A stretch of 64,000 nucleotides of DNA from an uncultured Alphaproteobacteria bacterium (GTDB lineage Bacteria; Pseudomonadota; Alphaproteobacteria; Parvibaculales; Parvibaculaceae): NCBI GenBank assembly GCA_963696585.1, contig CAVOKW010000035.1:77682-141681 (forward strand), in the 5' to 3' direction. This document shows positions 4,018 to 59,171 of this stretch, piece after piece. Made by a program: the position numbers and the translations under genes. Within the stretch, counting starts at the first letter, position 1. Every line of letters starts with the position of its first letter. The notes under the pieces were generated by a model. That model did not search any database, was not told the origin of the DNA, and worked only from the letters and a program-made list of their open reading frames with translations.

Positions 4018-4362
4018 TTATTCAGCTGCCGCTTCTGCAGCAATGCCTTTTTCTGTCAGATAGTCACGGAGTTCACCCTGCTCGAACATTTCGCGCACGA
4101 TGTCGCAACCGCCAACAAACTCACCCTTCACATAAAGCTGGGGAATGGTCGGCCAATCGGAATATTCCTTGATGCCCTGACGGATGGCGTCGTCTTCCAG
4201 CACATTGATGCCTTTGAAGGGAACGTTGAGATAGGTCAGCACCTGCACGACCGCATTGGAAAAGCCGCATTGCGGGAAAACCGGCGTGCCCTTCATAAAC
4301 ACAACAATGTCGTTACCCTCGACTTCAGCGCGGATGCGGTCGAATACGGGATTGTCGCTCAT
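4018..4362 (-). CDS. grxD: Monothiol glutaredoxin Grx4, copy 1
   Basis: [13 protein letters not shown] and [18 protein letters not shown]; GAGGA RBS before ATG 4362. Confidence 0.97.
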
Positions 4363-4396
4363 GTTCAAAGTCCTCTGATTCTTTCTGGCCGCTGGC

Positions 4397-4630
4397 TCAT
4401 TCGGGGGCGGAGGTCTGGAGTGCCAGAGCGTGCAGCTCGGTCCCCATGCCGCCCTTGAGCGCGTTGTAAACCATCTGGTGCTGCTGCACCCTTGTCATGC
4501 CCTTGAAGGAGGCGGAAACCACGTTGGCGGCGTAATGGTCGCCATCGCCCGCCAGATCGCGGATTTCGATCACGGCATCAGGAATGGCCTGCTGAATCAG
4601 TTTCTCAATGTCAGAAGCTGTCATCGCCAT
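4397..4630 (-). CDS. bolA: BolA family protein, copy 1
   Basis: DLAGDGDHY...[12 protein letters not shown]...LHALAL. Confidence 0.96.
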
Positions 4631-4660
4631 GCCGGGTTACTCCCCTTCACATCCAGTCGA

Positions 4661-4805
4661 TCAAACTTCATGCGCCTGCGCCATATAGGCAGGCAGCCAA
4701 CCCTCATGCGCCATGCGCAGCCTCTCCAATGATATGGGAGAGGCCTTGCCAAGTGTCAATTGCTCACCGCCGGTGAGGCCGAGGAAGCGGGCCGGAACGC
4801 CCGCC
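4661..4805 (-). pseudogene. purL: 3'-terminal fragment of purL (last ~48 codons)
   Basis: Identical to 9836-9980, the end of intact purL. Confidence 0.93.
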
Positions 4806-5995: not shown

Positions 5996-6135
5996 GTGAC
6001 TGGCTCCGGTCAGTGTCGTTGGTGGCACGAGGAGATTAAACGGCAGGCAGCGCCTGCCGATTGCGGGGTTGTTTCGGCATGTAACATTATGTAACGGGCC
6101 TTGAGATAAGTCGGCGGCGATGACAAAAATGCACA

Positions 6136-6858
6136 ATGAACAAGGAAGCAGCCGTTTTTCATATCCTGATCGTCGAGGACGACCGCGAGATTGGCGATCT
6201 GGTGCTTGATCTTTTGACCCGTGAGGGCTTCGCTGCCCGGCTGGCGCGCTCTGGCGCGGAAATGGATCAATTGATGATGCAGGAGGCGGTCGATCTGGTG
6301 GTGCTTGATCTGATGCTTCCGGGTGAAGATGGCATATCGATCTGTCGGCGGTTACGGTCGCGCAGCGCCCTTCCCATCATCATGCTGACGGCAAAGGGTG
6401 ATGATATTGACCGCATCATTGGCCTCGAAATCGGCGCCGACGATTATATGGGCAAACCGTTCAATCCGCGTGAGCTGCTGGCGCGGATCCGCTCGGTGTT
6501 GCGACGGACCGCGCAGACAGCCAGACTCGATGTCGTCGGTTCGGAGCGGCGGCATTTTGCGGGCTACATATTTGACGTCGAGGCGCGTCGGCTCATACGG
6601 GATGGCGTGGAAATCGAATTATCGACGGGCGATTATGATCTTCTGCTTGCCTTGACAGCCAATCCGCGCCGCCTGCTCACACGCGACCAATTGATGGACA
6701 TGACCAAGGGGCGCAGCTGGGAGGCTTTTGATCGTTCCATCGATGTGGCCCTGTCGCGGCTCCGGCGCAAGATCGAAACGGACTCGGCGCAACCGGCCCT
6801 GATCAAGACCATCCGCAATGCCGGATACATGTTGACCGTGCCGGTGGAACGGGTATGA
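6136..6858 (+). CDS. OmpR-family response regulator
   Basis: VEDD, LDLMLP, GADDYMGKPF, RSIDVALSRLRRK, IKTIRNAGY. Confidence 0.96.
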   Translation: MNKEAAVFHILIVEDDREIGDLVLDLLTREGFAARLARSGAEMDQLMMQEAVDLVVLDLMLPGEDGISICRRLRSRSALPIIMLTAKGDDIDRIIGLEIGADDYMGKPFNPRELLARIRSVLRRTAQTARLDVVGSERRHFAGYIFDVEARRLIRDGVEIELSTGDYDLLLALTANPRRLLTRDQLMDMTKGRSWEAFDRSIDVALSRLRRKIETDSAQPALIKTIRNAGYMLTVPVERV

Positions 6859-9195: not shown

Positions 9196-9537
9196 TTATT
9201 CGGCGGCTTGCGCGGTGATGCCTTTGGCGGCGAGATAGTCACGCAGTTCACCCTGCTCGAACATTTCGCGCACGATGTCACAACCGCCAACAAACTCACC
9301 CTTCACATAAAGCTGGGGAATGGTCGGCCAATCGGAATATTCCTTGATGCCCTGACGGATGGCGTCGTCTTCCAGCACATTGATGCCTTTGAAGGGGACG
9401 TTGAGATAGGTCAGCACCTGCACGACCGCATTGGAAAAGCCGCATTGCGGGAAAACCGGCGTGCCCTTCATAAACACAACAATGTCGTTACCCTCGACTT
9501 CAGCGCGGATGCGGTCGAATACGGGATTGTCGCTCAT
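9196..9537 (-). CDS. grxD: Monothiol glutaredoxin Grx4, copy 2
   Basis: Same protein as copy 1 except the C-terminal ~12 residues. Confidence 0.97.
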
Positions 9538-9980
9538 GTTCAAAGTCCTCTGATTCTTTCTGGCCGCTGGCTCATTCGGGGGCGGAGGTCTGGAGTGCCA
9601 GAGCGTGCAGCTCGGTCCCCATGCCGCCCTTGAGCGCGTTGTAAACCATCTGGTGCTGCTGCACCCTTGTCATGCCCTTGAAGGAGGCGGAAACCACGTT
9701 GGCGGCGTAATGGTCGCCATCGCCCGCCAGATCGCGGATTTCGATCACGGCATCAGGAATGGCCTGCTGAATCAGTTTCTCAATGTCAGAAGCTGTCATC
9801 GCCATGCCGGGTTACTCCCCTTCACATCCAGTCGATCAAACTTCATGCGCCTGCGCCATATAGGCAGGCAGCCAACCCTCATGCGCCATGCGCAGCCTCT
9901 CCAATGATATGGGAGAGGCCTTGCCAAGTGTCAATTGCTCACCGCCGGTGAGGCCGAGGAAGCGGGCCGGAACGCCCGCC
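9233..9980. repeat. Direct repeat copy 2
   Basis: See 4058-4805. Confidence 0.95.
9572..9805 (-). CDS. bolA: BolA family protein, copy 2
   Basis: Identical to copy 1. Confidence 0.96.
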
Positions 9981-27239: not shown

Positions 27240-28124
27240 TGCCCGGACGAGCCGGACCATGACGATTTTTCAAAGGCACACTGGCCCTCACCCCCTCATC
27301 CTCGCCGGACCTTCGGTCCGTCTCTCCCTCTCCCCTGAGGGGAGAGGGCAAGCGTGTCGACGGCAGGCGTGCGCGCGATTTTCTGGCCGTTCACGCCGAG
27401 CGCATCAAAGCGCATCTGGTCCATGCCGTCATATTTGCCGCCGTAGATGAGCGTCGGGCCTTTAATCCCCCCAGCATCTTACAAGTGTCATGCCCGGACT
27501 TGATCCGGGCATCCAGAGACGCAAATTCAAAAGCGGTCGCTCTGGATTGCCGGGTCAAGCCCGGCAATGACAACTGAATTTTGTGCCTCTTAATGGCGGG
27601 CGGATGACAGCAGAAGACGGGGATGGCCCGGACAAGCCGGGCCATGACGATTTTTCAAAGGCACACTGGCCCTCACCCCCTCACCCTCGCCGGACCTTCG
27701 GTCCGTCTCTCCCTCTCCCCTGAGGGGAGAGGGCAAGCGTGTCGACGGCAGGCGTGCGCGCGATTTTCTGGCCGTTCACGCCGAGCGCATCAAAGCGCAT
27801 CTGGTCCATGCCGTCATATTTGCCGCCGTAGATGAGCGTCGGGCCCTTAATCCCCCCAGCATCTTACAAGTGTCATGCCCGGACTTGATCCGGGCATCCA
27901 GAGACGCAAATTCAAAAGCGGTCGCTCTGGATTGCCGGGTCAAGCCCGGCAATGACAACTGAATTTTGTGCCTCTTAATGGCGGGCGGATGACAGCAGAA
28001 GACGGGGATGGCCCGGACAAGCCGGACCATGACGATTTTTCAAAGGCACACTGGCCCTCACCCCCTCATCCTCGCCGGACCTTCGGTCCGTCTCTCCCTC
28101 TCCCCTGAGGGGAGAGGGCAAGCG
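27240..28124. repeat. Tandem repeat of a 385-bp REP-mosaic unit (~2.3 copies)
   Basis: Same sequence at 27251, 27636 and 28021; unit holds a CCCTCACCC/GGGAGAGGG element, a gene fragment and a GTCAT doublet. Confidence 0.95.
27347..27421 (-). pseudogene. Sulfatase N-terminal fragment inside the 385-bp unit (second copy +385)
   Basis: Translates DQMRFDALGVNGQKIARTPAVDTLA, matching the sulfatase DQxRxDxLGxxG...TPxxDxLA motif. Confidence 0.7.
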
Positions 28125-41557: not shown

Positions 41558-42340
41558 TCACTTGTTGAGAGAGGAAGTCTCTCCGACCATCTGTGCTGGA
41601 CGCAGTTCCGTCAGGGTCCGGTTTTTCAGTGCCTTGTTGGCGAGAGCCGCGGTGACGAAGGGTGCGATGGTGCCCACTGGCGGCAGCGGCTGCATGGCGA
41701 TGTGACGAAAGCTGCGTTTGTCGAGATTGACCCAGATATAGGGCCGTTCACGCGACTGGCGTTTGACCCAGGTGTATGGCGTATCTACCCAGGCCACGAT
41801 CTGCCAGTTCTTGTTGTCGAGGATATATTCGCCCTTATCCGTCTCGACGACGAGTACGGCATGGCCTTCGCCGTTCCATTCGCGCACCACTGTGATCAGC
41901 AAGCTGTCGGCAGGCCAGCCGCGATCTATCAGAAGCTTCTGCTTGAGCATGGCCAGATCTTCGCAATCACCGCCCTGGGCACCGGCTACCGCCCACCATT
42001 CCGCGCGCTGATAAAGCTCATCATCCTCGCGCTGGGGTATGTTGCGATTGACATATTCATTCACTTCGTTGAGTTGCGACCAGCGCTCAGCGGTGAGTTC
42101 GGGATTTACGGGCCGATCATTGCCACCGGCGCATTGCTCGGCATTGCGCAGGCAATAGCCGATATAGCCGACGGGCGGCACGACCTGCTGGCCGACAGGC
42201 ATGGTCTCTGACATATGCTGCAACAGTGCCGGATCATTGTTCATTGCCAGCGGTGACAAGGAGGTTGTGCCGCCAGTGACGGCGCATCCACCCAGAGCGG
42301 AGACGAGAAGAACTGCTCCAACGACTTTACCGTACCACAT
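41558..42340 (-). CDS. Transglutaminase-like cysteine peptidase (BTLCP), lipoprotein-like signal
   Basis: GDCEDLAMLK, GHAVLVV, YILDN; LGGC lipobox-like motif. Confidence 0.92.
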   Translation of the reverse strand: MWYGKVVGAVLLVSALGGCAVTGGTTSLSPLAMNNDPALLQHMSETMPVGQQVVPPVGYIGYCLRNAEQCAGGNDRPVNPELTAERWSQLNEVNEYVNRNIPQREDDELYQRAEWWAVAGAQGGDCEDLAMLKQKLLIDRGWPADSLLITVVREWNGEGHAVLVVETDKGEYILDNKNWQIVAWVDTPYTWVKRQSRERPYIWVNLDKRSFRHIAMQPLPPVGTIAPFVTAALANKALKNRTLTELRPAQMVGETSSLNK

Positions 42341-42702: not shown

Positions 42703-43335
42703 TCAGCCGAAGGGGCGCGAAAGGGCGCTGGCGCGTTCGGGAATTTCCGTAAATTCGATGGCGATGCCTTCGATCGTATGGCGCACGATGCGGCCCTTCA
42801 TGCGGCCAATCGAGACATTGGTGCCAAGCGGTGGCTTGATTTCCGTGGCGACATTGGCGCCGCCGAGCGACATGTCAACGATACGGCAGGGCGCCGTGCG
42901 ACCATCGGGCAGGGTCACGACCGAGCCTTCCTCAATGCCCGCCTCTTTTGGCGCATAGCGCGGAAAGGCGCGCTTGGCCGCGATATCCTCCGGCGATTGC
43001 CCCCTGGCGATGGAATCAAGTTTGGCCTGCAAGCGCTCACGGCGCGGTCCGCTGATTGCCGTGGCAATGGCAAAGCCACCGTCGAATGATCGGGCGACAA
43101 CGCCTTCAAAGCGGCCAAAATCTTCGAGATAGATGATGATGTTGTCGCCAATGCTGACGAGCACGTCGCTATTGAGCGCGATGCCGCCAAGCGACATGTC
43201 CCGGATCGAGCATTCATGCTCGGTTCCATCAGTCGCCAAGAAGCGCCCTTTCGCAGAAACTGCGATTCGGGGATGCTGGCGGCGTTCGTGACCCTCAGGC
43301 TGCATATTTTCGACCGATGGCTGGCTTTGTGTCAT
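42703..43335 (-). CDS. Tandem PilZ-domain protein
   Basis: ERRQHPR/DMSLGG and KRAFPR/DMSLGG. Confidence 0.93.
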   Translation of the reverse strand: MTQSQPSVENMQPEGHERRQHPRIAVSAKGRFLATDGTEHECSIRDMSLGGIALNSDVLVSIGDNIIIYLEDFGRFEGVVARSFDGGFAIATAISGPRRERLQAKLDSIARGQSPEDIAAKRAFPRYAPKEAGIEEGSVVTLPDGRTAPCRIVDMSLGGANVATEIKPPLGTNVSIGRMKGRIVRHTIEGIAIEFTEIPERASALSRPFG

Positions 43336-43626: not shown

Positions 43627-45270
43627 ATGAGCAGCTTTGATTACATCATCATTGGCGCTGGCAGCGCCGGGTGCGTATTGGCGAACCGTCTGTCGGAAAA
43701 TCCCGCCAACAAGGTTCTGTTGCTGGAAGCTGGCGGCAAAGACAAGAACTTCATGATCCATATGCCTGCGGGTCTGGCGAGCCTGATCGGCGGCGGCAAG
43801 GAAAACTGGTGCTACGAAACCGAAGGCCAGCCGCATATGAACAACCGGCGCCTGTTCTGGCCGCGCGGCAAGGTACTGGGCGGCTCCTCGTCGATCAATG
43901 GCATGATCTATATTCGCGGCCATGCGCGCGACTATGACATGTGGCGTCAGATGGGTCTGGAAGGCTGGGGTTTTGGCGATGTGCTGCCCTATTTCCGGCG
44001 CTCCGAAGGCAACGAGAACGGCAATAGCGCCTTTCATGGCGGTGAAGGTCCGCTCGGTGTCACCAATGTACGCAAAACAAATGTGCTGTTTGATGCCTTC
44101 GTTGAAGCCGGCAAGCAGGCGGGTCATGCCTATACGGATGACTTCAATGGTCCCCAGCAAGAAGGTGTGGGCCCTTACCAGCTCACCATCAAGGACGGCA
44201 AGCGTTGCAGTGCGGCTGTCGGCTATCTCGTGCCAGCCCTTTCACGCGACAATCTTTCCGTTGAAGTCGAGGCGCTGACCTCGCGTGTTCTCTTTGAAGG
44301 CAAAAAGGCCGTTGGCGTTGAATATGTGCAGGGTGGTGTCACCAAGACGGTGCGCGCCAGCCGCGAGGTCATCATTTCGGGCGGCGCCGTGAATTCGCCG
44401 CAGGTGTTGATGCTGTCGGGCATTGGCGATGGCGACTATCTGAAGAAATTCGGCATTGATGTCGTCGCCCATCTGCCCGGTGTCGGCCAGAACCTGCAGG
44501 ACCATCTTGATGCGGCCGTGATTTATGAATGCAAGCTGCCGATCACGCTGCACAGCCAGACAAATCCGTTCCGTCAGATTTTGACGGGGATGCAATACGT
44601 CTTCTTCAAGTCGGGTCTGGCAGCTTCCAACGGTCTTGAATCGGGTGCTTTCCTGAAAACACGCTCGGAACTTGAAGTGCCTGATATTCAGCTGCATTTC
44701 GTGGCCGCCATGATGCGTGACCATGCGCGCATGAAGTCGGATCGCCATGGCTTCACGATCCATATCTGCCAGCTGCGCCCGGAAAGCCGCGGCTTTATCG
44801 GTCTCAAGAGTCCAAAGCCTGGCGACCATGCCTTGATTCAGCCGAACTATCTGGCGGCTGAATATGATCGCAAGGTGATGCGTGATGGCACGCGCATGGT
44901 GCGCAACATCATCGGCCAGCGGGCGATGGACGTTTATCGCGGGCCGGAAGTCTGGCCGGGTGCCGACAAGCAGAGCGATGCCGAAATTGATGGCTGGATC
45001 CGCGAGACTGCCGAGACGATCTACCACCCCGTGGGCACGGCCAAGATGGGTGTTGACCCGATGGCGGTTGTTGACGCGCGTTGCCGCGTGCATGGCATTG
45101 AAGGCTTGCGCGTGGTGGACGCGTCAGTCATGCCGACCCTTGTGGGTGGCAATACCAACGCGCCGACCATCATGATCGCCGAGAAGATTTCGGATGATAT
45201 TCTGGGACGCGCAGCGCTGCCGTCGGAAAATGTCACGATCGCCGAAGATCGCGTTGGCGCCGCTGCTTAA
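43627..45270 (+). CDS. GMC oxidoreductase (choline dehydrogenase/AlkJ-like)
   Basis: [51 protein letters not shown]. Confidence 0.96.
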
Positions 45271-45288
45271 GCGGCGCCCGCGAGGGCG

Positions 45289-45963
45289 TTATTTGTGATC
45301 TTCCGTGCGGTGGATCGCTGATTTGACGAGCCGCAGATAAGAACGCTCCGAACGCATGGGCGGGCGGCGCATCGCCATATTGGCAATGGTGCCTGACGCA
45401 ATGACGGGTGGTTTTTCGCGCATGATGCGACGGGCCACCGATTCAGCCTTGTATTCGCGCTTTGGCATTTTTTCCGGATTGAGAATCTGGAGACGGTCGA
45501 TCCATTGGCGTGCCAGAAGATGGTCGCCGATCCAGGCATGCTGTTCGGCGGGAACGGCCGCGCCGAGAATACGTGCGATGGCCCCATTTTCGGCGGCAAG
45601 CGGCATCAGGATCATTTCGAAGGCCGCTTCACGCTGCTGGCTTGTGGCAGCGGTATATTCGACGATGGCGATGTTGGCGGCACCGGTCACGTCTTCCAGC
45701 GCGTGCTTGATATTGTCGAGACAATCATCCTGCCACATGGAGAGAATGTTGTGGCCGCGGAACTCCATGCCGTAGGCACTGCACAGGCCGGTTCCTGCCA
45801 GACGGAAGGCATAGGACCAATCGTCCTGTCGCTCCAGAATGAACACATAGGGCAGGAGGCGCTTGATATCGCCGGGCTCGATTTCGCTGCGCTTGGGCGC
45901 GAGACGGCCAGCGCGCATGGCGTTCCAGTAATCAAACAGCGCCTGATTTGTCTTGTGTTTCAT
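45289..45963 (-). CDS. PAS_5-like domain protein
   Basis: LFDYWNAMRAGRLAPKRSEIEP, FRLAGTGLC, FEMILMPL. Confidence 0.85.
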   Translation of the reverse strand: MKHKTNQALFDYWNAMRAGRLAPKRSEIEPGDIKRLLPYVFILERQDDWSYAFRLAGTGLCSAYGMEFRGHNILSMWQDDCLDNIKHALEDVTGAANIAIVEYTAATSQQREAAFEMILMPLAAENGAIARILGAAVPAEQHAWIGDHLLARQWIDRLQILNPEKMPKREYKAESVARRIMREKPPVIASGTIANMAMRRPPMRSERSYLRLVKSAIHRTEDHK

Positions 45964-46164
45964 GCCCGTCACGTCCCCTGCCGCAATCAACTGTTGCCGT
46001 AAGCGCTGCCGGGTCGAGCGCTCGCCCGCGTCTGCCCGGTGGCTCTGAGGCCCGATGGTCTGTACCGTTTCGGGCCTTGTCCTTTACCTGTCGTCCCGCT
46101 TTGGCTGTGGCGTATCGATCCGATACGGGGATGAGCGCGTCGCCTTGCGGTTATCATGGCTGGA

Positions 46165-46179
46165 GCAGAAAGCGTGCCA
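46165..46179 (-). promoter_or_regulatory. Candidate sigma54 promoter for the PAS gene
   Basis: TGGCAC-GCTTT-CTGC (GG-N10-GC). Confidence 0.55.
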
Positions 46180-46317
46180 GATGTTAATGGCAGTTATGCG
46201 AAATCATTGTCACAGTCTCATTTCTGTACAAATTAATTCAATTAAAACAGTACGTTAGATTTTTTTCGCTGACAATTTCAAGCGCATTAAAACGTTAATT
46301 TTCCATCCGCCGCGTTG

Positions 46318-46332
46318 TGGCGCAAGGTTTGC
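46318..46332 (+). promoter_or_regulatory. Candidate sigma54 promoter for the Asn-rich gene
   Basis: TGGCGC-AAGGT-TTGC (GG-N10-GC). Confidence 0.65.
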
Positions 46333-46471
46333 GAGGGAGGTAATGGCTCAGGATTAGTCACTCTCGCATGTACCATGCGCGAATTTGCTGCGGCACATCT
46401 TTCGCATTGTGGGAGCGGGAGTCCCTGATTTTAGCAGGACAGCGTGCCCAATTGGGGCCGGGAGTGTCACG

Positions 46472-47506
46472 ATGAAACAGTTTTCAAAATATCTGGCAGG
46501 CGCATCGGTTGCCGTCGTGTTGGGCGCGGGGCTTTTTGCCTTTGCGGGCATGACCCCGGCCTATGCGGGCAGCAGCGGTTGCGACACAGGATGTCAGCCG
46601 CCTCCACCCCCGCCCGCCGATGATTGCGGCTGTGATGGTGGCGGTCACGATGACGGCGGCGGCGACGGCGACAGTCATGGTCATGGTGGCGGCAGCGGCA
46701 GCAACTCCAACGCCAATACGAACATCAACAAGAACACCAACATCAATGACAACACCAACACAAATAACAACAACAACACGAACAACAACACCAACACGAA
46801 CAACAACAATGTCGAAGTGAACAACGAGATCAATATTGACGTCACTGTTGATGCGAGCAGCAGCTCGAACAGCGATAGCAGCAGCAACAGTTCATCGTCC
46901 TCTTCAGCGCAGGCGGCCGCAGATGCAGCGGCGCAGAGCCAGGTCAGCAATGCGACCAGCACATCCTCGCGTCGCAATGCGTTGTTTGGCGATGAAGTTC
47001 GTGGTGCGGGTGGCACGGTCTATCAGGCGCCGCGTCCCCAGATTTCGATGGGACCGATTGTTGTTGTGGAGCGTCAGAGCAAACGTGGCCTGCGGCCTGT
47101 GAAGGGCGTCTGCCTTGATGCCAAAGGCGGTGAAGATACGGCGTTTCTGTCGGTTGACGACAAGCGCGTCGATATCAGCAAGGGCCGTGGCGAGCTGATG
47201 TATTGCCGTTCCGGCGAAACGCTGGTCGCGACGGTTGGCGTGATGACGCAAGATGATGGCGCGGCGCCCGATTATACGGGTGGCTATGTCATTGAATGTC
47301 AGGATGGCGAAACGCTGAACTATGGCGACGAGGGCCGACTGGCCTGTGTGGCGGGCGGACGTCATGCCGCCGGTGCCTCGCGGGCACATGGTCTGGCTGG
47401 CGGTCGCTATGCCGAGCTGTTCCTGACCAAGGAAAGCATTGAGGAGAGCGCCTCTGCCGTCACCTATGCGGGCGCGACGACCTTTAGTGGCGGTGTCGGC
47501 TACTGA
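46472..47506 (+). CDS. Secreted protein with Asn/Thr ladder, Ser/Ala tract and Cys-containing C-terminal domain
   Basis: GGGAG RBS; signal peptide ending AYA; NSNANTNINKNTNINDNTNTNNNNNT...; four Cys in the C-domain. Confidence 0.85.
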   Translation: MKQFSKYLAGASVAVVLGAGLFAFAGMTPAYAGSSGCDTGCQPPPPPPADDCGCDGGGHDDGGGDGDSHGHGGGSGSNSNANTNINKNTNINDNTNTNNNNNTNNNTNTNNNNVEVNNEINIDVTVDASSSSNSDSSSNSSSSSSAQAAADAAAQSQVSNATSTSSRRNALFGDEVRGAGGTVYQAPRPQISMGPIVVVERQSKRGLRPVKGVCLDAKGGEDTAFLSVDDKRVDISKGRGELMYCRSGETLVATVGVMTQDDGAAPDYTGGYVIECQDGETLNYGDEGRLACVAGGRHAAGASRAHGLAGGRYAELFLTKESIEESASAVTYAGATTFSGGVGY

Positions 47507-47527
47507 TCCGGTCAACAGGGCTGATTG

Positions 47528-47557
47528 AACGGGGAGGGCGAAAGCTCTCCCCGTTTT
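47528..47557 (+). terminator. Intrinsic terminator
   Basis: AACGGGGAGGGC-gaaa-GCTCTCCCCGTT-TTT. Confidence 0.85.
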
Positions 47558-47607
47558 TGTTTTGTCGCAGCCTCAGACGCGTTCCAGCCGATCACACCGG
47601 GGCCGAC

Positions 47608-48496
47608 CTTGAAGGCTGTAAAGACGTGGATGGCCCGAACAAGTCGGACCATGACGATGTTGACAGGATTGCGTCTTGTCCGGGTCAAGCCCGGCCATGA
47701 CTGTGGCATGGATCCCGGGAGTGAATCCCGGGATGACAGACTTATAATCCGTCATGCCCCGCTTCAGGCGGGGCATCCACGACTTGAAGGCTGTAAAGAC
47801 GTGGATGGCCCGAACAAGTCGGACCATGACGATGTTGACAGGATTGCGTCTTGTCCGGGTCAAGCCTGGCCATGACAAGTGGCATGGATCCCGGGAATGA
47901 ATCCCGGGATGACAGACTTATAATCCGTCATGCCCCGCTTCAGGCGGGGCATCCACGACTTGAAGGCTGTAAAGACGTGGATGGCCCGAACAAGTCGGAC
48001 CATGACGATGTTGACAGGATTGCGTCTTGTCCGGGTCAAGCCTGGCCATGACAAGTGGCATGGATCCCGGGAATAAATCCCGGGATGACGCTTGAAAACA
48101 ATGGGCGTCATGCCCCGCTTCAGGCGGGGCATCCACGACTTGAAGGCTGTAAAGACGTGGATGGCCCGAACAAGTCGGACCATGACGATGTTGACAGGAT
48201 TGCGTCTTGTCCGGGTCAAGCCTGGCCATGACTGTGGCATGGATCCCGGGAATGAATCCCGGGATGACAGACTTATAATCCGTCATGCCCCGCTTCAGGC
48301 GGGGCATCCACGACTTGAAGGCTGTAAAGACGTGGATGGCCCGAACAAGTCGGACCATGACGATGTTGACAGGATTGCGTCTTGTCCGGGTCAAGCCTGG
48401 CCATGACTGTGGCATGGATCCCGGGAATAAATCCCGGGATGACAGACTTAAAATAATGGGCGTCATGCCCCGCTTCAGGCGGGGCATCCACGACTT
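47608..48496. repeat. Tandem array of five 175-180-bp REP-mosaic units
   Basis: CTTGAAGGCTGTAAAG starts at 47608, 47783, 47959, 48139 and 48314; four GTCAT/ATGAC-type hairpins per unit. Confidence 0.97.
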
Positions 48497-48524
48497 CTGT
48501 TGTCACTCCGGTGTGATTTGTCAG

Positions 48525-48614
48525 CCCCCTCACCCGCGCTCGCGTTGCTCGCTTGCCCTCTCCCCTCAGGGGAGAGGGAGAGACGGACCGCAAGGTCCGG
48601 CGAGGGTGAGGGGT
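48525..48614. repeat. CCCTCACCC/GGGAGAGGG-type palindromic element
   Basis: Near-identical reverse complement of 28064-28152. Confidence 0.85.
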
Positions 48615-48636
48615 CCATGCCTTCAACAACACGCAC

Positions 48637-48669
48637 AAAAAAAGAGGAAGGCTTCGAGCCTTCCTCTTT
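48637..48669 (-). terminator. Intrinsic terminator of hfaB-like gene
   Basis: AAAGAGGAAGGCT-tcg-AGCCTTCCTCTTT preceded by an A run (T run on minus strand). Confidence 0.85.
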
Positions 48670-48697
48670 GTACTGACAGACTGTCGAAGGTCACGTG

Positions 48698-49708
48698 TCA
48701 GTTGGTGCTGCCGCGCAGGTCGCTCGAGTCGAAGGTTGGTGCGCGGTAATAGTCGTAAGGGTCCTTGATCTGTGTCGTGGCGACGATAGCCTCGGTGCGG
48801 GGCGAGGGTTTCTGGAACTCGATCTTGCCCAGCGGGTCGCCATTGGCGCCGAAGTTCGTGCAGCTTGTCGGGTTCACATTATAGAGCGGCACGACCATTT
48901 CGAGCACGGCGCGTTCGATGACCGAGCGGACGCCAAGCTGGAGCGGCTCGTTGGCGCGTTCGCCAGCCCCGAGGCTGAAGAGATTGCCGCCGAGAATGTC
49001 GAAGACGCCAGCGCTGATTTCGCGGCCGATGATCTGCTTCTGATAGGAAACAACATTGATGACTTCGAGCGTTTCGCTGTTCACGAGGCGCATGTCGATG
49101 CCGACATTCATGACGAACTGACGGGCATTGAGCGAGGCGCCGGTGTCGCCGCTGCCGGCTGTGTAGCCCGCATCAATGCCACCATTGCGGATGTCGTAAT
49201 TGAGTTCGGTGATGCCGCCGACGAGGTAGTAATTGCTGCCCTGAATGGAGCCCGCCATGATCTTGCGATAGTCGCCCGTGTCGGCCTGCACATTGTCGCC
49301 GATGAGTTTGGAGCTGGCATATTTCAGCTCAAGTTCGGTGACCGATGTGTCATAGCGCTCGACAAGGCGCACATGGGCTTTTGACAGGGCCGAAATCGCC
49401 ATCAGCGACCCGCCCTGGGTCACGGCCGGGCCGCCATCCTTGTCGATCTTGCCTGTGTAGTCGCGAATATTGCCAACAGCGATGCGCGGGGCGTCGTTCA
49501 TGCGGCCAATCGCCGTGCCGACGCAGCGCAGCGCCGAGGAATAAGGTGTTTCATTGTTGATGACGGGCGCATTGCCGATGGGGGTCGTGTAGCGGCCATC
49601 GCTGCCCGCATTGGGGCTGATGCAACCCGTGAGCGACAAGGTCAGGCCGAGCAAAGCCGCGATCCGCTTGGGACCGTTCTTCTCTCTCACATATGTGAAT
49701 GCCGGCAT
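48698..49708 (-). CDS. hfaB: HfaB/CsgG-family outer-membrane lipoprotein (336 aa)
   Basis: Lipobox LTGC; GRYTTPIGNAPVINNETPYSSALRC, AVGNIRDYTGK, VTQGGSLMAISALSKA, LVERYD, GGITELNY, NEPLQLGVR. Confidence 0.85.
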   Translation of the reverse strand: MPAFTYVREKNGPKRIAALLGLTLSLTGCISPNAGSDGRYTTPIGNAPVINNETPYSSALRCVGTAIGRMNDAPRIAVGNIRDYTGKIDKDGGPAVTQGGSLMAISALSKAHVRLVERYDTSVTELELKYASSKLIGDNVQADTGDYRKIMAGSIQGSNYYLVGGITELNYDIRNGGIDAGYTAGSGDTGASLNARQFVMNVGIDMRLVNSETLEVINVVSYQKQIIGREISAGVFDILGGNLFSLGAGERANEPLQLGVRSVIERAVLEMVVPLYNVNPTSCTNFGANGDPLGKIEFQKPSPRTEAIVATTQIKDPYDYYRAPTFDSSDLRGSTN

Positions 49709-49752
49709 CGTCACTTGGCTCACCTTGATAGCGAATTGTTCCAACTCATGAG

Positions 49753-49768
49753 TGCAACGGGTGTGCCA
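49753..49768 (-). promoter_or_regulatory. Consensus sigma54 promoter of hfaB-like gene
   Basis: TGGCAC-ACCCG-TTGCA, ~45 nt upstream of ATG. Confidence 0.8.
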
Positions 49769-49772
49769 GCGT

Positions 49773-49798
49773 AAAGCTCTTGTTAACGAATGAGCTTT
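49773..49798. promoter_or_regulatory. Inverted repeat abutting the -24 element (candidate operator)
   Basis: AAAGCTC-ttGTTAACgaat-GAGCTTT. Confidence 0.45.
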
Positions 49799-49970
49799 TC
49801 TGCGGGTTTGCAGGGTTAAGACGCTTTCTTCTGCCGCTTGTCTCTGTGCATCATGTGTCACGGCGGTCTTGCAAAGCCGGGGCCTCGGCCAGCGTGTTTC
49901 ATGCTGAAACAAAAGGCGCGGCGCGTTAACCAGTGCAATGCGCCAAATGGGGATCAGGGGAGAGTGCGCG

Positions 49971-50110
49971 ATGGCGCGGCTTGAGTTCTTTTTCGATTGT
50001 TCAAGTCCATGGACTTGTTTGGCTCGCCAACGATGTTTGTGAACAAGACTGACATGTATTTTGGCAATGATCGTTTGCCATTGGTGGAGGCTGCGCTTGA
50101 GCGTTCCTGA
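49971..50110 (+). pseudogene. HCCA isomerase/DsbA-family remnant with large internal deletion
   Basis: RBS + MARLEFFFDCSSPWT joined out of frame to FGSPTMFVNKTDMYFGNDRLPLVEAALERS*. Confidence 0.85.
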
Positions 50111-50126
50111 AGTTCCTGAGGCCGAA

Positions 50127-50918
50127 ATGCCACGTCATGAGCCACCGGCGCTGAATGTGCCCGGGCCCGTATTGGCGCTGTTGGCGCTGATGGCCGGTAT
50201 GTTTGTACTTTACGATCAATCCAGTCCCGATGGTCAGGATCAGATGATCTTGTGGCTGGCGTTGTTCCCGGCGCGCATTCTGGCGCCGACGGGTGAAAAC
50301 CTGATCTGGCCGGGTGGTGTGGCGGGCGATTTCTGGACCTTTATCACTTATACCTTCATGCATGGCAGCTGGACGCATCTCATCGTCAACAGTGTCTGGC
50401 TGCTCGCTTTTGGCTCGGCGCTGGCGCGGCGGCTGGGGGCTGTGCGTTTCTATCTCTTCTATTTCACCTGCGGCATTGCCGGGGCGGTGTTGCATGTGGC
50501 GCTGAATGCCGGATCGATGGTGCCGATTGTTGGCGCTTCGGCGGCGCTGTCTGGCCTGATGGGCGGTGCGGCGCGGTTCATCTTTCTCAGCGACGGGCCG
50601 CTGGGCGGATTGATGCGGATTGGCCGCGACGGATTGCCGATCATGTCGCGCGGGCGGATGTCGATCATGGGGGCGCTGACGGATCGCCGCTCGATGATTT
50701 TCATTGTGGTCTGGCTGGGGCTTAATTTCCTCTTTGGGCCGACGGGTCTTTCAGCGGCTGTGGGCTCAAGCGCGGCTGTTGCCTGGGAAGCGCATATGGG
50801 TGGTTTTCTTGCGGGATTGCTGCTTTTCGGCCTGTTTGACCCGCTGCAATTTTCAGCCTCTGGCGGACCGGGCAATGTGGACTATGGCCAATGGCTGGGA
50901 CCGCGCGACGGTAGATGA
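50127..50918 (+). CDS. Rhomboid intramembrane serine protease
   Basis: FMHGSWTHLIVN, VGASAALSG, AWEAHMGG. Confidence 0.95.
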   Translation: MPRHEPPALNVPGPVLALLALMAGMFVLYDQSSPDGQDQMILWLALFPARILAPTGENLIWPGGVAGDFWTFITYTFMHGSWTHLIVNSVWLLAFGSALARRLGAVRFYLFYFTCGIAGAVLHVALNAGSMVPIVGASAALSGLMGGAARFIFLSDGPLGGLMRIGRDGLPIMSRGRMSIMGALTDRRSMIFIVVWLGLNFLFGPTGLSAAVGSSAAVAWEAHMGGFLAGLLLFGLFDPLQFSASGGPGNVDYGQWLGPRDGR

Positions 50919-58574: not shown

Positions 58575-59027
58575 ATGCTGAACGAGATTTACAATCAGCG
58601 CATTCTGAAGCTGGCGGCGGATATCCCGCTGACGGCGCGGTTGGCTGCGCCTGATGCCACGGCGGTGGCGGTCTCGAAACTTTGCGGTTCCAAGGTGACG
58701 GTCGATATTTGCATGTCGGGTGACCGCGTGGCCGCCTATGGCGCCGAGATCAAGGCTTGTGCTCTGGGGCAGGCGTCCTCCTCGATCATGGCGCGTCATG
58801 TCATCGGCGCAAGCGCGGCAGAGCTTCATGCCGTCGCGGCGCAGATGCGGAAAATGCTGAAAGAGGATGGTCCGGCCCCGACGGGCGACTGGGCCGATCT
58901 TGAAGTGCTCGAACCGGTTCGGGGCTATAAGGCGCGTCATGCCTCCACATTGTTGATATTCGACGCTGTGGAGGAGGCGATTGATGCCGCCATGGCGCGC
59001 AATGACGGCAAGAGTAGACGTGGATGA
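58575..59027 (+). CDS. IscU/NifU_N-like scaffold protein
   Basis: SKLCGSKV, KACALGQASSS, RHASTLL; stop codon lies inside a REP. Confidence 0.9.
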   Translation: MLNEIYNQRILKLAADIPLTARLAAPDATAVAVSKLCGSKVTVDICMSGDRVAAYGAEIKACALGQASSSIMARHVIGASAAELHAVAAQMRKMLKEDGPAPTGDWADLEVLEPVRGYKARHASTLLIFDAVEEAIDAAMARNDGKSRRG

Positions 59028-59171
59028 CCCGCCTGAAGCGGGTCATGACGGGTATTTGTTGCGTCGTCATGGCCCGGCTTGTCCGGGCCATCCCACGTCT
59101 ACAAGGCCCTGAATGCGGGGATCCCGGGATGACGGCTACCGGTCGGATTGCCTGGCTTTGCTCGTCATGAC
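59020..59171. repeat. REP-like cluster
   Basis: GTGGATGACCCGCCTGAAGCGGGTCATGAC; GTCATGGCCCGGCTTGTCCGGGCCATCC; ..CCGGGATGAC; GGATTGCC..GTCATGAC. Confidence 0.8.

Follow-up and report, generated by a model that had tools for sequence, protein, structure and literature searches.

The best described relative of the protein considered here is HfaE (C. crescentus CC_2639/CCNA_02722; H. baltica Hbal_0649; PF26654), a secreted holdfast anchor protein of ~300–350 amino acids (aa) with a divergent low-complexity N-terminal half and a conserved, Cys-containing C-terminal half. HfaE is reported to be one of a handful of proteins restricted to Caulobacterales, its N-terminal half is the poorly conserved one, and the motifs PHPASQV, CNERSLLR and DGGVG are conserved in all HfaE analysed (Chepkwony, Hardy and Brun, bioRxiv 10.1101/2022.07.20.500906); predicted aggregation segments of canonical HfaE have been placed in the conserved C-terminal half. 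Deletion of C. crescentus hfaE causes the holdfast to be shed (PMC6372794), and the C. crescentus and H. baltica literature describes a protein that co-localises with the holdfast, requires HfaB, HfaA and HfaD for polar localisation, and alone forms multimers resistant to heat and to sodium dodecyl sulphate (SDS). The curlin-like HfaA and HfaD are secreted, HfaB-dependent proteins of low complexity (rich in Asn, Ala, Gly and Thr), encoded in the hfa locus and forming SDS-resistant multimers. Here we describe an hfaE-like gene (its product is referred to hereafter as the candidate) in a 64,000-nucleotide (nt) stretch of contig CAVOKW010000035.1 (the window), from an uncultured bacterium of the Parvibaculaceae. 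Parvibaculum belongs to this family and to the order Hyphomicrobiales (NCBI), outside Caulobacterales.

The candidate resembles canonical HfaE in its homologous C-domain, four invariant Cys, GGVG end, slot beside a PAS_5 gene and adjacent HfaB gene; it differs in lacking PHPAS and CNERSLLR, in carrying an expanded ladder of alternating Asn residues, in its Parvibaculaceae host and in a locus devoid of hfaA and hfaD. We assign it to a distinct subgroup of the HfaE/DUF8217 family, not to canonical HfaE, and put the probability that it is the Parvibaculaceae version of HfaE, with an HfaB-linked role in surface anchoring, at roughly 0.6.

Homology of the C-terminal domain

The gene and the domain through which it was classified are as follows.

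46472–47506, + strand: hfaE-like gene, encoding a DUF8217/HfaE-family secreted protein of 344 aa plus stop (from the open reading frame (ORF), codon statistics, ribosome-binding site, homology, and alleles on six other contigs)
46967–47503, + strand: conserved C-terminal DUF8217 domain, aa 166–344, with Cys214, 245, 276 and 292 and a terminal GGVGY

The original prediction for this gene had pointed, correctly, to similar C-terminal domains in Caulobacterales proteins and proposed a hidden Markov model search with the domain; that search recovered a family, and phmmer, hhalign and profile comparisons all identify it as HfaE/DUF8217. An exhaustive phmmer search with the C-domain against 1.84 billion representatives returned 25 clusters, the stronger matches having the candidate's full architecture and coming from Parvibaculum sp. 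where named, the weaker (E 1e-4 to 1e-7) bearing PHPAS(Q/R), CNERSLLR and DGGVG. The groups were aligned separately (16 sequences in the candidate subgroup, A2; 6 in the HfaE-motif group, A3), and hhalign of one against the other gave a probability of 99.8% (E 1.6e-27, 160 columns); BLASTP of the candidate against HfaE of Henriciella and of Maricaulis gave E 8e-8 and 6e-7, respectively. Profile searches expanded the HfaE-motif group to at least 1580 clusters (Hyphomonadaceae, Henriciella, Hyphomonas) and the candidate group to about 23 (Parvibaculum), with a precomputed PF26654 (DUF8217) tag on every match, albeit a weak one on the 342-aa candidate allele.

An alignment of 79 sequences from both groups shows all four C-domain Cys residues to be invariant, as are Gly340, Gly341, Val342 and Gly343 of the candidate's FSGGVGY end, where Ser replaces the Asp of DGGVG. 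The candidate has eight Cys in total against 9–10 in canonical HfaE. P. indicum encodes a 339-aa syntenic orthologue of the same architecture (C-domain E 4e-49), and across Parvibaculum-type genomes the candidate C-domain is about 50% identical. On this evidence homology between the candidate and HfaE seems to us almost certain.

Other routes into the databases were less productive. With the C-domain as its one query, a word-indexed search returned no match, a false negative given that the exhaustive and profile searches found the family, and scans of the candidate and eight relatives against NCBIfam and a local copy of Pfam (one without the PF26654 model) gave no family above threshold. Matches to Menin, SOG2, MAP_0585, ClfB and PRK13914 fell in low-complexity sequence, far below cutoffs, and were rejected. 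So was P0014 (1354 aa), a Gram-positive Big_3 repeat protein whose E-value derives from ten weak repeats and which is not a family member. Two further entries, P0005 (with a DnaJ N-terminus) and P0021 (with an aldo/keto-reductase fragment), are fusions to a DUF8217 fragment; both lie on short metagenome contigs, and we take them for probable chimeras of assembly or gene calling.

The hfaB locus

The candidate's position provides a second line of comparison, for which the following features are needed.

48698–49708, − strand: hfaB, CsgG-like outer-membrane lipoprotein, 336 aa from MPAFTYV, lipobox LTGC (NCBIfam, Pfam and identity)
48641–48669, − strand: intrinsic terminator of hfaB
47527–47556, + strand: intrinsic terminator of the hfaE-like gene (13-bp stem plus T run)
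45289–45990, − strand: PAS_5 (MopJ-like) gene (Pfam PAS_5 1.3e-38; MopJ model 69 bits, cutoff 200)
42703–43335, − strand: PilZ-domain gene (precomputed Pfam tags on identical or syntenic loci)

We identify the product of 48698–49708 as HfaB from its match to NCBIfam NF037935 holdfast_HfaB (360.9 bits, equivalog cutoff 300) and to Pfam CsgG (4.4e-17), and from 54–62% identity to the HfaB of Maricaulis and Henriciella. The nearest hfaB genes come from a 'Hyphomicrobiales' metagenome-assembled genome (MAG; 84% identity) and from Parvibaculum (64–65%, including P. indicum DSM 25305). HfaB is presumed to be the secretion and anchoring partner of the candidate.

In H. baltica, hfaE has been placed beside the hfa operon (bioRxiv 10.1101/2022.07.20.500906), and the Maricaulis and Henriciella loci agree. 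The Maricaulis order runs PilZ, PAS_5 (−), DUF8217 (+), HfaD (−), CsgG (−), HfaA (−), Rhomboid, GDYXXLXY, DUF2157, CBS, and Henriciella aquimarina and a Hyphomonadaceae MAG retain the same core, with PAS_5 (−) followed by DUF8217 (+) convergent with HfaD–CsgG–HfaA. The window reads PilZ, GMC oxidoreductase, PAS_5, candidate, hfaB, rhomboid, GDYxxLxY, DUF2157-like, CBS; this backbone, with the candidate in the hfaE slot, is present in the window, in P. indicum and in three Parvibaculum-type contigs. Since the window and Maricaulis share the same gene backbone, the comparison identifies the candidate as the positional orthologue of hfaE, and five Parvibaculum-type loci fill the slot in the same way. 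Every locus examined has the PAS_5 gene divergent from hfaE, and this holds from Maricaulis and Henriciella to Parvibaculum; a PilZ gene usually stands alongside. The arrangement suggests that a regulatory connection (cell cycle or cyclic di-GMP) to the anchor gene has been conserved.

Several points weigh against an HfaE-like anchoring role. The PHPASQV motif is absent from the candidate, where the aligned region is DAKGGEDTAFLSV with GGEDTAFLSV in the place of PHPAS (DAKGLEEAA in the subgroup), and CNERSLLR is missing together with its Cys pair, its place being taken by a variable Gly/Ala/Arg-rich loop (GRHAAGASRAHGLAGGRYAELFL); because two of the three published motifs are lacking, we have filed the protein as a distinct subgroup. 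The hfaE-like gene and hfaB are convergent, 1.2 kb apart and each furnished with its own terminator, and so share no operon, and in relatives 2.5–4.6 kb of unrelated genes separate the two. With HfaA and HfaD of Maricaulis and Henriciella as queries, tblastn found neither gene in six Parvibaculum-type loci or the window, while it recovered HfaB there at 1e-80 to 1e-95; the gene tables of three Parvibaculum-type loci list CsgG alone, with no HfaA or HfaD tag. With both absent from the loci, the anchor complex is incomplete here unless the two genes are located in another part of the genome. The N-terminal half, ladder included, is modelled by AlphaFold2 with a predicted local distance difference test score (pLDDT) below 50 and no secondary structure. 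We found no report of a holdfast in Parvibaculum in the literature, the subgroup is known from sequence alone, and HfaE itself ranks among the least understood components of the anchor that holds the Caulobacter holdfast. On the matter of motifs, a Hyphomonadaceae family member (P0019) likewise lacks CNERSLLR, yet lies near a full hfa operon.

The missing hfaA and hfaD genes would also fit a different history, in which the candidate is a non-adhesion periplasmic protein, rich in Cys, His and Asp and related to metal or redox chemistry, and the adjacency of hfaB is relic synteny left after holdfast loss. The composition of the N-terminus, the decay of the adjacent DsbA-like gene to a remnant in the window, and the lack of any described holdfast in Parvibaculum in our literature search are all compatible with such a course of events. 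We nonetheless judge it very unlikely: hfaB and the candidate are both intact and conserved (65–84% identity for HfaB and about 50% for the candidate C-domain, in Parvibaculum-type genomes), HfaB still scores above its equivalog cutoff, and the Cys-Pro-Cys motif also occurs in motif-bearing Maricaulis HfaE, encoded beside a complete hfaA-hfaB-hfaD operon. The gene is moreover invariant outside its Asn tract in many environments, and both genes are accordingly under selection.

Protein architecture and the alternating-Asn ladder

The N-terminal half of the candidate is divided as follows.

46472–46567, + strand: predicted Sec signal peptide, aa 1–32 (MKQFSK, hydrophobic core, cleavage between AYA and G; sequence features only)
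46580–46633, + strand: Cys pair/poly-Pro/Cys pair motif CDTGCQPPPPPPADDCGC, aa 37–54 (CDTGC-PPPPPP-CGC type)
46634–46702, + strand: Gly/His/Asp linker, aa 55–77 (comparable G/H run in relatives)
46703–46810, + strand: every-other-Asn ladder, aa 78–113 (alternation statistics, DNA periods, allele indels)
46811–46852, + strand: amphipathic alternating strand VEVNNEINIDVTVD, aa 114–127, the end of the Asn-rich tract
46853–46966, + strand: Ser/Ala low-complexity tract, aa 128–165 (predicted helix at aa 145–158)

The signal peptide, Gly/His/Asp linker, Asn tract, Ser/Ala tract and Cys-containing C-terminus that were first noticed in this ORF are all present in its translation. The plan is matched by the N-terminus of Maricaulis HfaE (signal peptide, Gly run, CCTPPPPPTCC, NHGGGH, alternating VNV segment, Ser/Ala tract), with CCTPPPPPTCC as the counterpart of the Cys pair/poly-Pro/Cys pair motif, which itself recurs in the subfamily. 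Much of the subfamily, and Maricaulis HfaE too, has segments of VxVNVD type akin to aa 114–127, and the amphipathic run is short in most canonical HfaE (median 2 steps). Within the C-domain, ELMYCRSGETLVATVG and YVIECQDGETLNYG can be read as an internal echo.

AlphaFold2, run on the 79-sequence alignment, predicts the C-domain to be all-beta with eleven strands (pLDDT 82–96 for aa ~195–331), a model that bears out the globular C-terminus proposed at the outset. Foldseek against the PDB gave a best E of 0.33 and a template modelling score of at most 0.28, to generic immunoglobulin-like domains, and so no solved relative; a sequence profile also had no match in the PDB. The weak multi-repeat match to a Big_3 adhesin gives no more than a hint of an Ig-like sandwich.

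From these features we envisage the following route for the candidate as an HfaB-linked anchor protein. The protein would be exported by Sec and its signal peptide cleaved, after which the four invariant Cys would be oxidised to disulfides, yielding a compact domain of the predicted all-beta fold. HfaB, a CsgG-like lipoprotein channel, would then take it to the cell surface, by analogy with C. crescentus HfaE, which needs HfaB. In curli secretion CsgG passes unfolded chains, and for this reason the unstructured N-terminal half (Cys-Pro-Cys staple, G/H linker, ladder, VxVNVD strand and Ser/Ala tract) would be the part able to traverse a CsgG-type pore. Outside the cell, the N-terminal half may self-associate, embed in polysaccharide via its Asn and Tyr/Thr/Ile faces, or both, with the conserved C-domain serving as a putative protein–protein or protein–glycan docking module. 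Overall, the candidate would be a secreted component of a complex tethering a polar adhesive (holdfast-type) polysaccharide to the outer membrane, and because hfaA and hfaD are missing from the locus, HfaB and the candidate may be the whole anchor. The original prediction of a self-polymerising stalk displaying a folded tip becomes merely one option in such a scheme: since a folded, disulfide-bonded C-domain would not fit a CsgG-type channel, the opposite topology is at least as likely.

Within the N-terminal half, the Asn ladder is the feature that sets the subgroup apart. Asn stands at every second position for 18 consecutive steps over 36 residues (aa 78–113), inside a longer Asn-rich tract in which 26 of 52 residues are Asn (aa 76–127). 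We counted 13 N-x-N triplets, where shuffling with composition preserved gave 6.4 ± 2.2 (p = 0.005), and the DNA of the tract repeats imperfectly with 6-, 12- and 18-nt periods. The alternating-Asn run has a median length of 15 in 26 subgroup members versus 1 in 42 canonical HfaE, and tracts of 8 to 25 alternating Asn are found among relatives. The partner residues drift, from T/I/K in the candidate to Y/K, W/Q and H/E in other members; it is the pattern of the ladder that is conserved rather than its sequence.

Variation at the level of strains is concentrated in the same place. Six contigs with an identical neighbouring gene carry alleles of 342, 346 and 352 aa that are 100% identical except for in-frame indels (a NTNINK unit, or 2–4 Asn/Thr residues; 6, 12 or 18 nt), and every difference among contigs from four independent studies is confined to 46747–46774. 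Within the gene the ladder alone is polymorphic, and it always varies in frame, in an organism detected in freshwater, soil, sediment, hydrocarbon and oil-field metagenomes. The gene is real and maintained, and outside the tract it is under purifying selection. Slippage of 6–18-nt units would have expanded the ladder in this lineage, leaving its length strain-variable.

Such behaviour recalls the Ser-Asp repeats of MSCRAMM proteins (ClfA, ClfB, Sdr), strict dipeptide repeats built of 6–18-nt units that are length-polymorphic and lie between a sorting signal and a functional domain. The candidate tract has the same repeat traits and draws a weak match from the ClfB model (11.5 bits, threshold 999); it differs in its residues, its beta-prone partners, the Gram-negative envelope and the lack of LPXTG. 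The main alternative for the ladder is accordingly a slippage-generated spacer of adjustable length, in which the low-complexity half would be extended or disordered but non-amyloid and all specific function would lie in the C-domain. The predicted disorder of the tract, its status as the only polymorphic part (changing by whole repeat units), its range of 8 to 25 alternating Asn among relatives, the generally poor conservation of the HfaE N-terminal half and the location of the sub-threshold ClfB and MAP_0585 matches in low-complexity sequence all fit a spacer. A mere spacer, however, fits less well with partner positions that favour aromatic and beta-branched types (Y, W, I, T, V) over the small or charged residues usual in spacers, with an amphipathic, beta-strand-like VxVNVD segment that always follows the tract, or with an Asn register held over long runs (p = 0.005), and we consider this explanation possible though rather unlikely.

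Amyloid is the other property to which the ladder invites comparison. Asn/Gln ladders stabilise cross-beta structure in curli and Fap, Asn-rich tracts are known prion and steric-zipper formers (Sup35 GNNQQNY, for example), and the Asn-rich prion-like domains of yeast Sup35 and Ure2, where Asn is accompanied by Tyr, Thr and Ser, form in-register parallel beta-sheets with Asn ladders. Sup35 and Ure2 are cytoplasmic eukaryotic proteins without strict alternation, likened to the candidate here by composition alone. Like curli CsgA–CsgG and Fap, the window presents a secreted Asn-rich substrate candidate adjoined by a CsgG-family channel gene, and the part of the original prediction that saw a functional amyloid or fibre candidate is strengthened by that neighbour; the curlin- or Fap-type repeats that would have completed the likeness are missing. 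No curlin or Fap model in Pfam matched the candidate at E up to 10, the 19–23-residue rung periodicity is absent (the sole tandem periodicity, 6, 12 and 18 nt, corresponds to 2–6 aa), and no CsgB, CsgE, CsgF, FapA or FapB was found among Pfam-tagged neighbours within about 10 kb in relatives of the window. Curli and Fap proteins also lack a counterpart of the large folded C-domain. Because it has no such repeats, the candidate is classed as neither a curlin nor a Fap protein. It is likewise distinct from HfaA and HfaD, which show no sequence similarity to it (tblastn) and which have curlin-type GN-x-A/S repeats where the candidate has a dipeptide ladder and a folded domain.

By family and context, an amyloid reading is plausible. 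A narrower proposal makes the ladder itself the cross-beta (amyloid) core of a self-polymerising fibre or stalk with the C-domain as its tip. It would explain Asn at every second position over 36 residues with beta-prone partners (T, I and K here; Y, W and H in relatives) and a pattern kept in 26 subgroup members while the sequence drifts; it also agrees with the adjacent CsgG-type channel gene and with the SDS-resistant multimers of the HfaE family, and the absence of the curlin-like HfaA and HfaD from the locus may call for a replacement. Against it, canonical HfaE, whose median alternating run is 1, forms resistant multimers without any ladder. The tract also has pLDDT below 50 (although the AlphaFold2 model is of a monomer and cannot show amyloid) and no 19–23-residue rung repeat as in CsgA or FapC, slippage of 6 nt alone can yield a strict dipeptide period in a length-polymorphic tract (compare the staphylococcal Ser-Asp repeats), and a CsgG-type pore would not let through a folded tip closed by disulfides. 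The earlier view of the ladder as a cross-beta core loses ground, and we think it unlikely. That the ladder acts as a beta-zipper or amyloid-like polymerisation element is a tentative suggestion, which we would not expect to hold but keep beside the preferred reading of an HfaB-linked anchor protein. N-glycosylation sequons in the Asn tract were also considered, and nothing pointed to them.

Gene boundaries, flanking features and significance

The longest ORF in frame spans 46385–47506 (+), of which we take the ATG at 46472 as the better start, because it has a Shine-Dalgarno sequence 7 nt upstream, a signal peptide beginning at residue 1, and the same start called on six related contigs. A TTG start at 46385 has no argument from a ribosome-binding site, would bury the signal peptide and disagrees with the ATG called in relatives, and was rejected.

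46460–46464, + strand: Shine-Dalgarno GGGAG, 7 nt before the ATG (read directly)

Codon statistics favour frame 0 of the + strand in the signal peptide, Asn tract and C-domain alike; an antisense ORF of 203 aa (46904–47515), with codon statistics that are not coding-like, was discarded. No full CtrA box (TTAA-N7-TTAA) occurs anywhere in the window, and no sigma-70 consensus promoter in 45900–50150. A 151-nt wastewater metatranscriptome contig matches 46998–47148 (C-domain coding) perfectly and is the sole RNA-derived piece found across 45200–50000; as a sign of transcription this single contig is at best weak. Exact-sequence look-ups of the 344-aa and 373-aa products returned no match, since the tracts of the deposited alleles are of other lengths.

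Between the two convergent genes lies a repeat array.

47608–48582, no strand assigned: hairpin-rich REP-like element of ~176 nt in about 5.5 tandem copies, filling the gap between the convergent genes

Each ~176-nt element comprises two GC-rich hairpins, ATGCCCCGC-TTCAG-GCGGGGCAT and ATCCCGGGA-ATGA-ATCCCGGGAT. The module at 47621–47657 reaches roughly 20–30 times the flanking contig depth in metagenomes, fragments recur at 27999–28039 and 59016–59051 and in Parvibaculum loci L007 and L008, and several public contigs terminate inside the element, which looks like a dispersed repetitive extragenic palindrome/bacterial interspersed mosaic element (REP/BIME). In a near-identical strain of the same species from another sample (L003), a 180-aa MOSC-domain gene (6116–6658), lacking in the window, stands between the hfaE-like gene and the repeat array.

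Three further observations concern the surroundings. Two genes past PilZ, in the window as in Parvibaculum loci, precomputed tags place a Peptidase_C93 gene (41558–42340, − strand; the LapG family of bacterial transglutaminase-like cysteine proteases), a further surface-adhesion-type gene of the neighbourhood. Between hfaB and the rhomboid gene, 49916–50110 holds a remnant of a DsbA-family gene (DSBA, PF01323) that is intact in Parvibaculum relatives (200–263 aa); it keeps the first ~22 and last ~35–50 codons in different frames and looks like an internal-deletion pseudogene. Far from the locus, a 763-bp segment is directly duplicated (4043–4805 and 9218–9980, copies 5.2 kb apart with 99% identity) and has a monothiol-glutaredoxin-like ORF on the minus strand.

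Three aspects of the locus are new as judged by our comparisons: the extension of the HfaE family outside Caulobacterales, an hfaB and hfaE-like pair without hfaA or hfaD in the locus, and a subgroup-specific, strain-variable Asn ladder. The Parvibaculaceae subgroup brings the family into hydrocarbon- and surfactant-associated bacteria from soil, freshwater and oil-field samples, and comparison across the family separates the conserved features (the four Cys, the GGVG end and the all-beta core) from the dispensable PHPAS and CNERSLLR motifs. The hfaB and hfaE-like pairing offers a naturally minimal system for studying the roles of HfaE and HfaB when HfaA and HfaD are missing.

The every-other-Asn tract is in addition a possible beta-zipper module of the bacterial surface, and one that lends itself to a clean test. 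In its fullest form this idea supposes a two-gene holdfast-type anchor in Parvibaculaceae, made of HfaB and an HfaE variant whose prion-like, cross-beta (Asn-x)n module replaces the HfaA/HfaD fibres. We regard that combination as quite improbable; if true, it would represent a new sequence class of extracellular functional amyloid exported via a CsgG-type channel, and would extend holdfast-like polar adhesion beyond Caulobacterales. As the only polymorphic part of the gene, the tract may tune the length or strength of the anchor between strains.

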